From Octopus vulgaris (taxonomy: Eukaryota): a stretch of DNA of 64,000 nucleotides. The stretch lies in assembly GCA_951406725.2 (NCBI GenBank), contig OX597814.1, positions 179,862,001 through 179,926,000 on the forward strand, in the 5' to 3' direction. The position numbers and the translations under genes are program-made. The notes under the pieces were generated by a model that searched no databases, was not told the origin of the DNA, and worked only from the letters and a program-made list of their open reading frames with translations. Of the stretch, positions 6,421 through 29,730 are shown one piece after another; position 1 is the stretch's first letter; each line of letters opens with the position of its first letter.

Positions 6421-6900
6421 TTAAAATTTTTTGCCTTTCCTTTGGGGTGAATTTCTCTGTATAAGTATGTTGGAACGGTTAAGTCTGGGCTTGTACTTTT
6501 CAATGAAGAATGTTTCCTTGTTTAGTCTAATTTGTGTTGGTGTTCCGATAGCACATTGGTAAAATGGAAAGATAAAAAATTGTGGTAGTAGTTGCTTTGC
6601 GCATTTCTCAATGTGCTCACTAAAAGGTATCATTCTGTATTCTGGGAATGCAATCTGTTGTCGATGCAGTGTGCATCTACGTCTGAGTGATAATCCCGTG
6701 GATCCCACGTAGTCTTGGTGGCAGCCCGAGCATTTTATGACATAAATTATGTTTTCAGAGGCACAAGTAAAGTTAGATTTGATCTTGAATTTCTGTCCCT
6801 CTTTGAAGAGGAATTCTGATCCTTCTAGCAGGTTTGGACATGTTGCACAGTTCGGTCTACCACATTTTTTTACTTTTGCATCCGTAATTTCAGAAAACAA
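6421..6900 (-). CDS. GIY-YIG endonuclease domain of Penelope-like retroelement (C-terminal fragment)
   Basis: KKCGRPNCATCPNL Zn-knuckle linker, FTCASENIIYVIKCSGCHQDYVGSTG (GIY-YIG bipartite motif), RRRCTLH, RLNKETFFIEKYKPRLN. Confidence 0.85.
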   Translation of the reverse strand: MFSEITDAKVKKCGRPNCATCPNLLEGSEFLFKEGQKFKIKSNFTCASENIIYVIKCSGCHQDYVGSTGLSLRRRCTLHRQQIAFPEYRMIPFSEHIEKCAKQLLPQFFIFPFYQCAIGTPTQIRLNKETFFIEKYKPRLNRSNILIQRNSPQRKGKKF

Positions 6901-7059
6901 TTTTGCCTTTGTGAGAACTTTTTAAGTGATTTAGGTTGTTTGTAGCTTTTAATGATTTGGTGTATGTTTAGAATTTCCTTTAATTTGGGATCCACGGGAC
7001 TATCACTCAGACGTAGATGCACACTGCATCGACAACAGATTGCATTCCCATATAAATAA

Positions 7060-7894: not shown

Positions 7895-8609
7895 ATGCAG
7901 TTAATTGAAAGATACCTCATCTTTTATGTCGTGTTGTAGAACTGAATATAGAGCAATGGCGATGAGGCTTTCTTGAAACGCAATCAGAAAATACTTTTAT
8001 TTATATACTTTAGACGTGAACTCATCTAACACGGTAATGTGAATTGACAAAGATCTGGCTACTGTTGATGGCAGGTCGGAAATGTCTTTGGTGACATGTT
8101 TGTTAACTTCCGATAGCAACAAAAATAAATGCGACAAACTATTAGAAGCTTTCAACATCAAAGTGGCAGTCACGTCCGTCATACATAAATTAAAACTCTT
8201 TTCCACACAAACAGATATACACATTTGCAAAGCACTGTTTTTCGCAAACTTCCACTATATATATATATGTGTTGGTATGATTGTGCGTACGTCTCATTTG
8301 CCTGTGTATGTGTGTGTGACTGTCTGTGTAACTGTGTTTGTTTATTTCGATCACATACTTTCATAAATATACCTGTGTGGGTGTGTGCATATGAGTGTTT
8401 GATGTGTGTATATGTGTGAGTGTATGAAGACAGAGACAGACAGAGAGAATTATATACGCATACTGACACACACATACACACATATGTATGTATTTTCTGT
8501 ATCATATTATTGTTTCAGAGTGATCTCTTTCTGCTCGTGTAAATTTCAAATGATATTTCATCAATTAACATGATGAGGGCGAGGTAATTTACATAAATAC
8601 ATACATGCT

Positions 8610-9610
8610 CCTGCCCACGCTGTCGCACTTGCCCTTACCTCTCCAACACCACCCTCCTCACCGGCACCCATCATCGACTCTATCACATCACCGACTCCTT
8701 CACCTGCACTTCTAACAAAGTCATCTACTGCATCTCCTGCTCTCTCTGCCCTTCTCTATACATCGGGCAAACAGAACGCCACTTGGCTGCCCGGCTCGCG
8801 GAACACCTCCGAGAATCCGACTCGGCAATGACACCCTGGTCTCGCGCGATTTCCGCTCTACCGGTCACTCTTTGCAACACCTGTCCTGTTCGGATTATCC
8901 TAGCATTGGGGCCATCCGGACTCTTGTTTGTGCCGTGAACAGGGATTAACCTTCTCTCATCGCTCCTTTGCGCCACGTGAGCTCAACTCTCATCTTCTCT
9001 TAATCTAACCTCCCCCCTCATACGCACTTCCTCCCACGCACCTTCCCTTTCTTGCTCCGACTCCCACATACTCTCTTCACTCCTACCTACCTTCTCCTTC
9101 TCCCCTTCTTTCGTCACCCCTCCCTGGTAAGCCCACTCCACCCCTACACATTCCATCCCTACCCTTCCCCATCCCACCCCACCCCATATCTTACACCTAC
9201 TCCCGCATACGCCTCCTTTACCCCACCGTCAGCTTAACACACACCCTAACCTTGCTTTCCCTACTCTCGCCTCCCCACCTCCCAACACCCTCAAAGTACA
9301 CCACACACCACTACACCTTACACTACCATAGCACTCAGCACATCACATTACAACACACCACCACGCACACATCTGCACTGACCACTTCCTAAACCCACAT
9401 TTTACATACGCACGCGCACCTTTGTTTGGGGATAACCACTACTTTATTATCTCCCCTTCTCCCTAGCTCTCCTGTGTAACCCTTCTCTTCGGCATTCGCC
9501 ATGATAGATCTTTAGCTACTACACATTCACTATTTTCTCTCCTTGTATCTTTCTGTGTTCCTTTCTGTGGAAGAGCGTAGGCTCGAAACGTTAAAGATCT
9601 TTTCACTACA
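8610..9610 (+). mobile_element. Penelope-like element 3' fragment (decayed GIY-YIG, pyrimidine-rich 3' UTR, hammerhead)
   Basis: From ~8699 the + strand translates FTCTSNKVIYCISCSLCPSLYIGQTERHLAARLAEHLR; HHR-like motif 9561-9596; ends at (TA)n; 3' part homologous to 61097-61290. Confidence 0.8.
9561..9596 (+). ncRNA. Minimal type I hammerhead motif, CUGUGGA variant core
   Basis: cttt-CTGTGGA-a-gagc gtag gctc-GAAA-cg-TT-aaag; stems I and II intact, palindromic stem III acgt. Confidence 0.55.
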
Positions 9611-21080: not shown

Positions 21081-21429
21081 TTTTACTCTTTTACTTGTTT
21101 CAGTCATTTGACTGCGGCCATGCTTGAGCACCGCCTTTTAGTCGAGCAAATCGACCCCAGGACTTATTCTTTGTAAGCCTAGTACTTTCGCCGAACCGCT
21201 AAGTAACGGGAACGGAAACACACCAGCATCAGTTGTCAAGCGATGTTGGGGGGGGGCAAACGCAGACACACAAAACACACACATATATACGATGGGCTTC
21301 TTTCAGTTTCCATCGACCAAATCCACTCACAAGGATTTGGTCGGCCCGAGACAGTTGCCTAAGATGCCACGCTGAACCTGGAACCATGTAGTTCGTAAGC
21401 TAGCTACTTGCCACACAGCCACTCCTGCG

Positions 21430-21430
<1 letters not shown>
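21079..21430 (-). mobile_element. SINE family A (reverse orientation)
   Basis: Reverse complement of the family A consensus with small internal deletions. Confidence 0.85.
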
Positions 21431-21485
<55 letters not shown>

Positions 21486-21489
<4 letters not shown>

Positions 21490-22097
21490 ACAATCAAGGA
21501 ACGGCCATAATAGGCCATTCACCCACTAGAAATAACAGCCAAAGCTTCAACCGCAAATAAAAGTTAATTCTGTAAACCAGGAGAAAATTCAAAAAAACAT
21601 TTACCCTGTAATTTCTTATACGATATACCGTTTCATCTGCTGATTAATGGTAAACTAACCTGATTAAATTAAATCAAGCCAATCTTCCACAGGCCCTCAG
21701 ATTCTTCAGTAAGAAATAGCCCAAGACGGAACAGATATTTTCACGAGGCATTTCCGACCTTGCCAAGTTTATATCTGACCTAAAATTTTCAAATCGTCGC
21801 ACTCGCGCCAAATTTATCGGCAGCAAATAAATATAAGCCGTCGATTCCATTACGGAATTAACCAGAAAATTCATAATTAATCAATATAGGGTGGCAAAAA
21901 AAATTTTGTAGAATTCTTTTGCCACCAGCGGCCTAGTAGGAAAAAATTAAATAGTCATAGACCATTTTTTAGGTTCAACATCAACAATCAAGGAACGGCC
22001 ATAATAGGCCATTCACCCACTAGAAATAACAGCCAAAGCTTCAACCGCAAATAAAAGTTAATTCTGTAAACCAGGAGAAAATTCAAAAAAACATTTA
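21486..22097 (-). mobile_element. Candidate retrozyme-like non-coding element: 494-bp unit with 118-bp terminal direct repeat and a hammerhead
   Basis: 21486-21603 identical to 21980-22097; HHR at 21611-21717; no recognisable coding capacity; abuts (TA)n. Confidence 0.6.
21611..21717 (-). ncRNA. Type I hammerhead ribozyme with extended stem II
   Basis: Minus: atttctta-CTGAAGA-atctg-(58 nt)-cagat-GAAA-cgg tata tcg-TA-taagaaat. Canonical core, 8-bp stem I, 5-bp stem II, stem III, GUA triplet; predicted cut between 21619 and 21618. Confidence 0.85.
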
Positions 22098-22418
22098 TAG
22101 CAAAACAAGAGATTGGAAAAAAGTGTGGTGCTATTAATTCACCATTACACATGCTTCATTAGCTAATAGAATTTACAATATTGTACATGTAGGAAAAACA
22201 TGTAAAATATCTCCTGTTAGAAATCCTTGAATGTGACAATTTTGATTATAATTCTGTAACCCTTATTAACAAATGAAATGTATGTAATTAGTGAATAAAT
22301 AATAACTTCTTCGAATCTACTCTTTTGATATATAATTACTCTGCAAAAAATATTTTCCAAGAATTTTCAACTTTTATGCATACCTCACGTAAATATAACA
22401 TCTACATAGCGATTTTGT

Positions 22419-22722
22419 GGAGGCACATGTCCTAGTGATTAGAGCAGTGGCCTCGCAGTCGAGGGATCGCGGATTTGAATCTCAGACCGCGTGGTCTGTG
22501 TGTTTATGAGCGAAACACCTAAGCTCTACGCGGCTCCGGCAGAAGGTAATGGCGAACTTCTACAGACTTTTTGCCACAACTTTCTCTCACTCTTTCCTCA
22601 TGTATCTTGCAGCTCACCTGCGACGGACCGGCGTCCCCTCCAGGTGGGGAACCTATACGCCAAGGAAACCGGGAAACCGGCCCTTATGAATCAGGGATAG
22701 CTCGAGAACGAACAAAACAAAA
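22419..22722 (+). mobile_element. SINE family B
   Basis: Degenerate A/B boxes, gagcgaaacacctaagctc, gaaaccgggaaaccggcccttatga 3' part. Confidence 0.75.
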
Positions 22723-28171: not shown

Positions 28172-28968
28172 CAGTAGTTTTATTTTTATAACGAGTTTCA
28201 CTTCACTACCGAGCGCAGCTCTGTGTGCCTTGGGTATTTGCTGTGATTTTTTGGGATGCTCTGATGGTTACTGTATTGAAAGTGTTCTGCGTAGAATGTG
28301 TGCAGTGCCTAGTAGTGCAATTTTCTGTATGTTATATGTGTTTGTTAGTCCTGGTGTTTTTGTTATGTACTTGTCTGAATATTTTTTCATCATGCCTCAT
28401 GCACCTACTATGATAGGAATTGTTTCTCTTTTTAGATTCCACATTCTAGTTACCTCTATTTCCAGGTCTTTGTATTTTGAAAGTTTCTCCATTTCTTTTA
28501 TAGAGACGTTGTCATCTGCTGGTATTGATACATCAATTAGAAAGCATTTTTTCTTCTCTGACAACTATATCTGGTCTGTTGGCCTTAATTTCTCTATCTG
28601 TGTGTATTGGCATATCCCAGAGTATGGTTGCTTTCTCGTTTTCTGTGACCTTTTCTGGTGTGTGCCTATACCATCTTTTTTCTGTTGTTATTCCATAATG
28701 TTGGCATAGCTCCCTGTGTATGTAGCTCCCAACTCTGTCGTGTCTGTGAATATATTCATTCTTAGCCAGGACTGGGCAGCCAGAGATAATATGATTTATT
28801 GTTTCTTGTCCATCTCCACATATTCTGCAGTTACTTGTTATATTTCTTTTCATTACATGTTTTTGGTAATTCCTAGTGGGGAGGCTTTGGTCTTGCGCTG
28901 CAATTAAAAATCCCTCTGTCTCTGCTTTGAGTCCTGAGCTTCTCAACCATTGCTGAGATTTTTCTTCT

Positions 28969-28970
<2 letters not shown>
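28172..28970 (-). mobile_element. R4/Dong-type non-LTR retrotransposon 3' fragment (CCHC + REL endonuclease)
   Basis: LKAETEGFLIAAQDQ, CRICGDGQETINHIISGC, RHDRV, KANRPDIVV, IQKIALLGTAHILRRTL; (TAA)n on both sides. Confidence 0.88.
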
Positions 28971-29062
<92 letters not shown>

Positions 29063-29111
29063 CATTATCCTCATCATTATTATTAGTAGTAGTATTAGTA
29101 TTAGTATTATT

Positions 29112-29730
29112 GAGTGAGAGTGCAGTGCATGCCATCAAAGTGACACTAAGGTAAAATATACGAAGCCCAGTATACCCATCATGACTACCCGTTTGATAAG
29201 GGTACATCAGTCACATGCATCACAACCATATGTGCGCGACATGGTGATTTCATATCAAGATAAACAGCGCATGACCTTTCAGGTAGGGCCCAGTTAGAAT
29301 TTTCTTCTGGTCGAGTAGCCCATCCCGCTCAAAAGGTCCCTGAATAAGGATTGTTTAAGGATGTTGAACAAACTACCCATGTTTCAAAGGTGAATTATCC
29401 AAACCTCTAAGAATTCCTTTCAACACACGGCTATGATGCTCCCACACTACTTCTGCTTGTGATCAGAGATGCACATATCGTCAGCCACTAAGGGACATGA
29501 TCAACTGGATCAGGTCAAACAACTGACAAGCAAATCTGTGGTATTGAGCAGAATATTTGCTGTAGCCCATCTGATAAGTGTACACCAGGCACATAGGCGC
29601 TACATAGTGATTTCATATCAAGATAGACTACGTATGACCCTACAGGTGGGGCCGAATTATTCAGCACCCAATGAATTCCTCTCAAGAAATGGTTATATTA
29701 CCCCTCTACTACTCCTGCTCGTGATCAGAT
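29112..29730. repeat. Interspersed repeat of unknown class with partial internal duplication
   Basis: 29194-29290 (tgataagggtaca..catatcaagata..tgacc) recurs at ~29572-29655. Confidence 0.4.

Follow-up and report, generated by a model that had tools for sequence, protein, structure and literature searches.

The DNA analyzed here, referred to as the window, is a stretch of 64,000 nucleotides from Octopus vulgaris (contig OX597814.1, positions 179,862,001 to 179,926,000). The window insertion comprises 1.24 units of a repeat, in a single arm with a single hammerhead ribozyme. Its features are given below in window positions. Positions within the unit are expressed as q, the window position minus 21485, which places the predicted ribozyme cut at q133/134.

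21431–21487, no strand: (TA)n microsatellite that serves as target, beside which the arm has its fixed start; the same context is found at 412 and 673 exact end matches genome-wide
21486–21490, plus strand: fixed start site S ("q1"), which in the RNA lies 133 nt downstream of the cut
21486–21979, minus strand: one full 494-nt unit, non-coding, 36% GC; the RNA sense is the minus strand
21611–21717, minus strand: type I hammerhead, read from the sequence and recovered by a descriptor scan
21717–21710 with 21618–21611, minus strand: stem I, 8 bp
21709–21703, minus strand: core CUGAAGA
21702–21698 with 21639–21635, minus strand: stem II, 5 bp, closing an insert of ~58 nt with a long hairpin
21634–21631, minus strand: GAAA
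21631–21620, minus strand: stem III, weak and palindromic
between 21619 and 21618, minus strand: predicted GUA^ cut, 15 nt before 21603
21873: second fixed start site T ("q388"), unused in the window copy
21873–21979, plus strand: 107-nt "tail" between S and T, with the 21890–21926 hairpin
21980–22097, minus strand: partial second unit of 118 nt, where the arm stops; junction bridged in DNA runs X1 and X4

A preliminary description of this DNA had reported a perfect 118-bp terminal redundancy with a period of 494. Direct comparison of positions 21486–21603 with 21980–22097 gave 100% identity over 118 bp at that spacing. The repeat is thus real, but it is not a fixed terminal repeat: the second segment is a partial tandem unit, which abuts unique flank directly, with no TA tract and no second arm on the far side, and which ends 15 nt short of the next predicted cut. 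The same description had proposed that the unit is non-coding, contains extra stems and ends in (TA)n, in all of which it was correct. No open reading frame (ORF) of 100 aa or more overlaps the insertion, and a natural 8-unit array of the family remains free of stops for at most 68 aa. The hairpin stems at 21890–21926 and 21844–21858 are present, the TA tract occupies 21431–21487, and the 494-nt unit, with a GC content of 0.358, folds better than its shuffles (z -4.6; 0/100 shuffles). It had also raised the possibility of an assembly artefact. The right junction is not one, as it is bridged in two DNA runs of different studies (X1, which may be the source sample, and X4) by 299-nt contigs that span 22054–22352 with 0 and 1 mismatches; among the contigs listed, none covers the entire insertion. 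High-copy SINE-like repeats flank the insertion at 21090–21430 and at about 22420–22720, and the left one displays very high contig depth both in DNA runs and in runs guessed to be RNA.

The insertion belongs to a dispersed family, which excludes the single-copy alternative. A search of the genome (2.8 Gb) gave 898 candidates, and the 40 that were scored contained 161 matches, mostly 97–99% identical, arranged in tandem and located on many contigs. An exact 17-base pattern of the ribozyme core matched 1,412 times (control, 1), and a looser core pattern that admits other subfamilies matched 3,120 times (control, 783). Exact end patterns adjoining (TA)4 or more were found 412 times for S and 673 times for T, compared with 0 for the reversed-pattern controls, giving at least 673 insertion ends in the family. 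Units are 490–494 nt long (about 493 nt), older subfamilies are ~90% identical to the window unit, and insertions reach about 8.8 units, with single arms of up to 6.5 units. We fetched 100 loci, consisting of the 40 best, which are biased to long arrays, and 60 on contig C1 that were located through exact matches to the end patterns, a set without four short paired loci of that contig. Animal non-LTR retrozymes are expressed as both linear and circular RNA, have target-site duplications of more than 4 bp where any are present, and lack a primer-binding site and a polypurine tract. In the arrays of this family no pair of LTRs was seen, and the (TA)n target masks any target-site duplication at the insertions. 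Judged by the 97–99% identity between dispersed arrays, the family is young and recently active. This agrees with the recency that had been deduced from the identical repeats of the window copy, for which the 118-bp identity is a weaker basis. The window locus itself is an ordinary truncated one-armed copy of this young, protein-free repeat family. It contains only one hammerhead because its second copy stops 15 nt before the second cut, at q118, and with one ribozyme it could not release a full monomer and is a dead end. The family is more informative than the window locus, and it offers testable genomic evidence on the mobilization of retrozymes by Penelope-like elements (PLEs).

The minus-strand hammerhead had been predicted to cut 15 nt before the repeat, and our analysis places a type I ribozyme there, with its cut at 21619/21618. 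Rfam scans reported no hammerhead family for the unit, likely because of the long stem II insert. Dispersed and tandem copies that retain the hammerhead, for which the preliminary description had proposed a search, were found: the core CUGANGA is intact in 235 of 238 full copies. N7 and H17 are hammerhead positions that tolerate change. In the 238 full copies N7 is occupied by all four bases (A132/U70/C22/G11) and H17 only by A or C (A199/C39). The stem III loop reads TATA in 180/257 and TGCA in 76/257 cases, a double change that preserves its self-complementarity, and intermediates are absent (0). Among 25 distinct copies, 99.0% of the cells are paired versus 32–45% in slid controls; two changes are two-sided, and as the copies are related these represent few independent events. 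The pattern of variation, in which N7 is free, H17 is only A or C and the stem III loop remains palindromic, strongly indicates that the hammerhead is under selection. The calculated energy of the stem III hairpin is -0.2 kcal/mol, versus -13.6 kcal/mol for the intermolecular duplex, and a palindromic stem III of this kind is described as a dimeric hammerhead arrangement in PMC4209133. Neighboring hammerheads would thus probably pair via stem III, and since this stem is too weak for the monomer fold, cutting may be incomplete.

Comparison of the fetched loci revealed how insertions of this family are organized. Beside (TA)n, arms begin at one of two sites, either S (q1; older subfamilies, q5 or q7) or T (at about q388), and extend towards the inside of the insertion. 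In the RNA, T lies 107 nt 3′ of S, and both sites are internal to the cut monomer, at 133 (S) and 240 nt (T) from its 5′ end. Site S of the window copy (21486–21490) would be the point at which reverse transcription initiated. Family sequence is present on both strands in 76 of the 100 loci, and 72 of these combine a T arm with an S arm, compared with none for T plus T, one for S plus S (L047) and three for T plus an internal piece. The 24 one-strand loci include five with a short stub of the other arm by eye and one that exceeds the fetched region; the window locus is among the few that lack both a second arm and a far-side TA tract. This pairing of S and T is the "tail" signature described for Penelope elements, with one start per strand.

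Inverted arms of tandem units and homogeneous arrays are also what a foldback-type DNA transposon or a recombination-amplified satellite could display. In a foldback DNA transposon both ends carry the same terminus and copies share the same structure. In this family, however, one end is S and the other T, arm lengths as well as junctions vary among loci, 13/15 locus-rare alleles are common to opposite arms, and the ribozyme pattern is conserved at the RNA level. We therefore consider an origin of this type hardly credible.

Another way to obtain an inverted arm is snap-back (self-priming) of a single cDNA, in which case the second fixed end would be a resolution site. Self-priming has been proposed for PLE palindromes (PMC3846280), and 15 of the 72 two-arm loci have arms that end within 25 nt of the same template position, compared with a mean of 2.9 and a maximum of 10 in 20,000 shuffles; six of these 15 end at q107–135, and several are near-perfect hairpins (this paired-end test omits L047, L086, L092 and L102). 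Co-terminal arms are expected too, however, if two reverse transcriptases reach the same RNA end. Moreover, the arms differ by more than 25 nt in the other 57 of 72 loci, in both directions and by up to several units. The longer arm is T in 29 and S in 28 of the 72 loci, and since either can be longer, neither arm is always a fold-back copy and each can be templated independently. In addition, the PAc protein primes at both sites in vitro (PMC11167929). Snap-back as the source of the inverted arm is thus improbable in our view, and we favor two separately primed arms.

Some junctions contain additional sequence. Short reiterated A/T insertions that resemble templated end-joining patches are found at the inversion junctions of L090, L122 and L128. 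At L047 (501–2009) a ~1.26-kb fragment adjoins a short T arm and by eye resembles the 3′ end of a LINE reverse transcriptase; this LINE-like fragment is followed by a microsatellite and then by the sole S plus S insertion.

The length of the window copy had been taken as the mark of a circular template. This length does not single out a circle, as the same 1.24 monomers would equally result from a linear dimer that is uncut internally and has its 5′ end made by the ribozyme. Where the arms end is more instructive. Altogether, 34 of 167 arm ends fall at q100–135, where 12.2 are expected; beyond q135 their number drops sharply. Among the 90 arms of the C1 census, 17, from 11 loci, stop in this interval on their first pass (hazard 0.19 versus a background of 0.06), the two arms of one locus not being independent observations. 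Region q100–125 is A/T-rich and contains short palindromes that are used at junctions, and microhomology may inflate the pile-up. On the strength of these positions we read it as reflecting linear, ribozyme-cut RNA that served as template in a minority of events. Most arms pass the cut site; 82 of 166 are longer than one unit, up to a maximum of 3,190 nt. On later passes 15 of 142 stops are near the cut over all loci (6.2 expected); the corresponding excess in the unbiased C1 census is not significant (4/52 versus 3.1 expected). The window locus and four other one-armed copies stop at q112–129 on the second pass. Later-pass stops near the cut fit linear oligomers or reopened circles.

The sequences of the units within an insertion bear on the same question. 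Units of one insertion diverge by 0.2–0.4%, equally within and across arms, compared with 1.2% (young) or 5% (old) between loci; many young arrays have a nearest other locus that matches their units as closely as these match each other. We scored 91 loci (seven complex loci were left out) for rare alleles, defined as those seen in at most two loci. Twenty of these, in 14 of the 91 loci, are fixed across two or more passes. Five are heterogeneous, one being mirrored at one pass only and four being present in a subset of passes; the remainder consists of 85 single-unit and 15 uninformative alleles. The presence of rare alleles fixed over passes and arms favors repeated copying of one monomer, as occurs on a circle. 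Young homogeneous source arrays would, on the other hand, also give uniform passes and oligomers.

The same element and enzyme could indeed have used linear templates, namely monomers released by cutting and oligomers in which cutting was incomplete, both transcribed from existing arrays; circles, if made, would be by-products. The pile-up of ends before the cut on first passes (and on later ones when all loci are counted), the second-pass stops of the window locus and its four one-armed counterparts, and the weak stem III, as a result of which cutting may be incomplete, are all in line with this view, and oligomers are present in axolotl (PMC7229834). In addition, four loci (L036, L082, L098 and L113) have heterogeneous passes, which a monomeric circle does not predict. 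One of these, L098 (2592–5041), alternates two unit variants, A-B-A-B in one arm and B in the other; this single case is what a dimeric circle or a two-RNA template would give. Against exclusive use of linear templates, only 1 rare allele is mirrored at a single pass, versus 52 single-unit alleles that are absent at the mirror position of the other arm and the 20 that are fixed across passes. Locus-rare alleles are fixed in up to 6 units, which requires repeated copying of one monomer at some step. Finally, all 257 matched units have a precise junction at the cut site, as judged with a pattern that would miss larger changes. We regard the linear-template explanation as unlikely, though a serious one, and lean towards the circle as the template of most long arrays. 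Most likely the templates are a mix of circles, cut monomers and oligomers.

To find a partner, we searched the genome for GIY-YIG domains. Of the 6,136 candidates the best 150 were scored, and these are dominated by one young PLE family with intact 781-aa frames that contain the reverse transcriptase (RT) and GIY-YIG domains, and with a CX4CX2C motif before the nuclease, a motif tied to Neptune, Nematis and Naiad (PMC8557442). This PLE sits in (TA)n and has pLTRs of ~500 nt, inverted arms and two 3′ ends 38–39 nt apart. When the unit was compared by blastn with 20 PLE loci nothing better than E 0.29 was obtained, and an nhmmer search with a 9-unit profile against 50 PLE loci, representing a few families, matched only L133, where a 57-nt stub of the family lies ~1.1 kb from an unrelated PLE fragment. 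Suitable machinery is therefore active in this genome, and because the dominant PLE and the unit have no detectable sequence in common, this PLE is a candidate partner only.

The tail, the inverted arms and the TA target are PLE features (PMC8557442, PMC11167929), and of 57 Xenopus retrozyme families 24 correspond to annotated repeats, which are almost all PLEs (bioRxiv 10.64898/2026.07.22.740005). These observations would also fit if the unit were simply the pLTR of a coding PLE and the arrays its truncated copies, a possibility noted in the preliminary description. In the 100 loci, however, no ORF lies in or adjoins the arms and no arm enters one; matches to PLE proteins occur in just 5 of the 100, all about 380 nt or more outside the insertion. 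The arms, furthermore, repeat the unit up to 6.5 turns, and no similarity was found to the pLTRs of the 50 PLE loci (from the 150 scored of 6,136 GIY-YIG candidates). This explanation is thus very improbable.

Several other sequences were noted in the course of this search. The copies of the dominant PLE at L161–L172 (e.g. L164:1544–6790) have an upstream open frame of up to 479 aa and, in their 38–39-nt tail, a hairpin; about 95 nt before their 3′ end lies a hammerhead-like core of the U3-A8 type, the stem I of which is not canonical. A separate imperfect palindromic insertion beside a PLE end (L162:6850–7240), with a minus-strand CUGAAGA hammerhead-like motif, is probably another family. The window itself contains broken PLE fragments of the GIY-YIG region at 6478–6992 (minus strand) and 8597–8854 (plus strand; tblastn, E 1e-44 and 2e-7, respectively), and a 225-aa frame at 28533–29210 (minus strand) that matches zf-RVT (E 4.9e-6) and is likely part of a LINE.

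The family belongs to the already known animal non-LTR retrozymes. These were defined in PMC7229834, which demonstrated RNA circles in coral, mussel and axolotl and named PLEs as strong mobilization candidates; the words "inverted", "microsatellite" and "target site" have 0 occurrences in its main text. Like them, the family consists of non-coding, low-GC (<50%) dispersed tandems with a type I hammerhead per unit in a genome where PLEs co-exist. Its 493 nt are within the 51–972-bp range of the retrozymes of Li, Clavereau and Pollet 2026 but exceed the 170–400-nt RNAs of Cervera and de la Pena 2020, and the ~58-nt stem II insert is an addition. In vertebrates, co-occurrence of retrozymes and PLEs and homology to pLTRs have been reported (bioRxiv 10.64898/2026.07.22.740005), with cleavage in vitro in one of nine elements; that study sampled no mollusc and names the mobilization mechanism as open. 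According to PMC7229834 and the 2026 preprint, plant LTR retrozymes are likewise non-autonomous hammerhead retroelements, theirs having a circular RNA as intermediate, but they have type III ribozymes, LTRs, PBS/PPT and 4-bp target-site duplications, where this family has a type I ribozyme and partial tandems.

The likeness extends to EN+ PLEs (PAc/Poseidon, Neptune, Naiad and the non-autonomous Chlamys, e.g. MRC1), which also have two internal starts bounding a tail, an inverted 5′-truncated arm, an AT-rich or (TA)n target, a hammerhead and head-to-tail copies (PMC11167929, PMC8557442). Inverted truncated copies, tails of 30–40 bp and a preference for (TA)n are described in PMC8557442. According to PMC11167929, the PAc protein acts on AT-rich DNA, of which it cuts and extends each strand, two internal RNA starts bound the tail, and ribozyme cleavage is unneeded for insertion in vitro. 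The family differs from these elements in having no ORF, where that of EN+ PLEs encodes RT and GIY-YIG between pLTRs; in its tail of 107 nt, versus 30–40 nt in described PLEs; in its full canonical hammerhead, versus a minimal one; and in the strict pairing of one site per side, where for PAc no start-site difference between strands was seen (PMC11167929). An incomplete literature search returned no description of a cephalopod retrozyme or of a two-site, two-arm retrozyme insertion.

In agreement with the preliminary description, which had proposed a non-autonomous hammerhead retroelement with Penelope-type mobilization, the dispersed copies, the S and T ends and the (TA)n target make it very probable that the family is a PLE-mobilized retrozyme. 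We also think it probable that the window locus is a one-armed truncated copy of such an animal non-LTR retrozyme, likely reverse-transcribed into (TA)n by a PLE enzyme, and probably often from a circular monomer. In the scheme that we infer, as to cleavage, ligation, enzyme and order of steps alike, tandem arrays would be transcribed from the minus strand, and adjacent hammerheads, probably paired through stem III, would divide the transcript into monomers of ~493 nt, and a fraction of these would be ligated to form circles. A PLE RT/GIY-YIG protein would then cut both strands of a (TA)n tract, and both of the resulting 3′ ends would prime cDNA, one strand at S and the opposite strand at T, which lies 107 nt further 3′. 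Copying of a circle could extend each arm to as many as 6.5 units; on a cut linear RNA both arms would stop at or shortly before the cut site. Host end-joining would finally unite the two cDNA ends, giving tandem arrays with one inversion. A more specific version, which we advance tentatively and doubt slightly more than we believe, is that one PLE complex primes the broken (TA)n at S and T of the same ~493-nt circle, so that two rolling-circle reverse transcriptions proceed simultaneously. If true, the genome would record three proposed steps, namely PLE mobilization of retrozymes, rolling-circle cDNA synthesis and template cleavage in vivo, and two-site priming would also explain the tail and the inverted arm of PLEs generally.

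Mobilization of animal retrozymes by PLEs via RNA circles has so far been based, in the sources cited above, on co-occurrence and pLTR homology. Hundreds of young insertions of the present family carry a mechanistic PLE footprint, and the same genome contains an intact TA-targeting PLE. With a 493-nt RNA, mapped starts, a (TA)n target and a candidate protein, the PLE insertion mechanism becomes testable in vitro.

Expression of the family is weakly indicated. Contigs of two runs guessed to be RNA (X2 and X10) cover the unit, at a depth that is low relative to the flanking SINE-like repeat; in run contigs a circle looks the same as a tandem. No promoter was found in the unit. An snRNA-type element had been suggested by 8 bases that match the U2 upstream motif, but we rejected it: with a promoter matrix built from the U1 and U2 upstream motifs, 213 of 300 shuffles score at least as high as the unit. 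A short upstream motif common to the U1 and U2 genes themselves (L181–L207) is located at about -56 to -60, and their promoters come in at least four variants.
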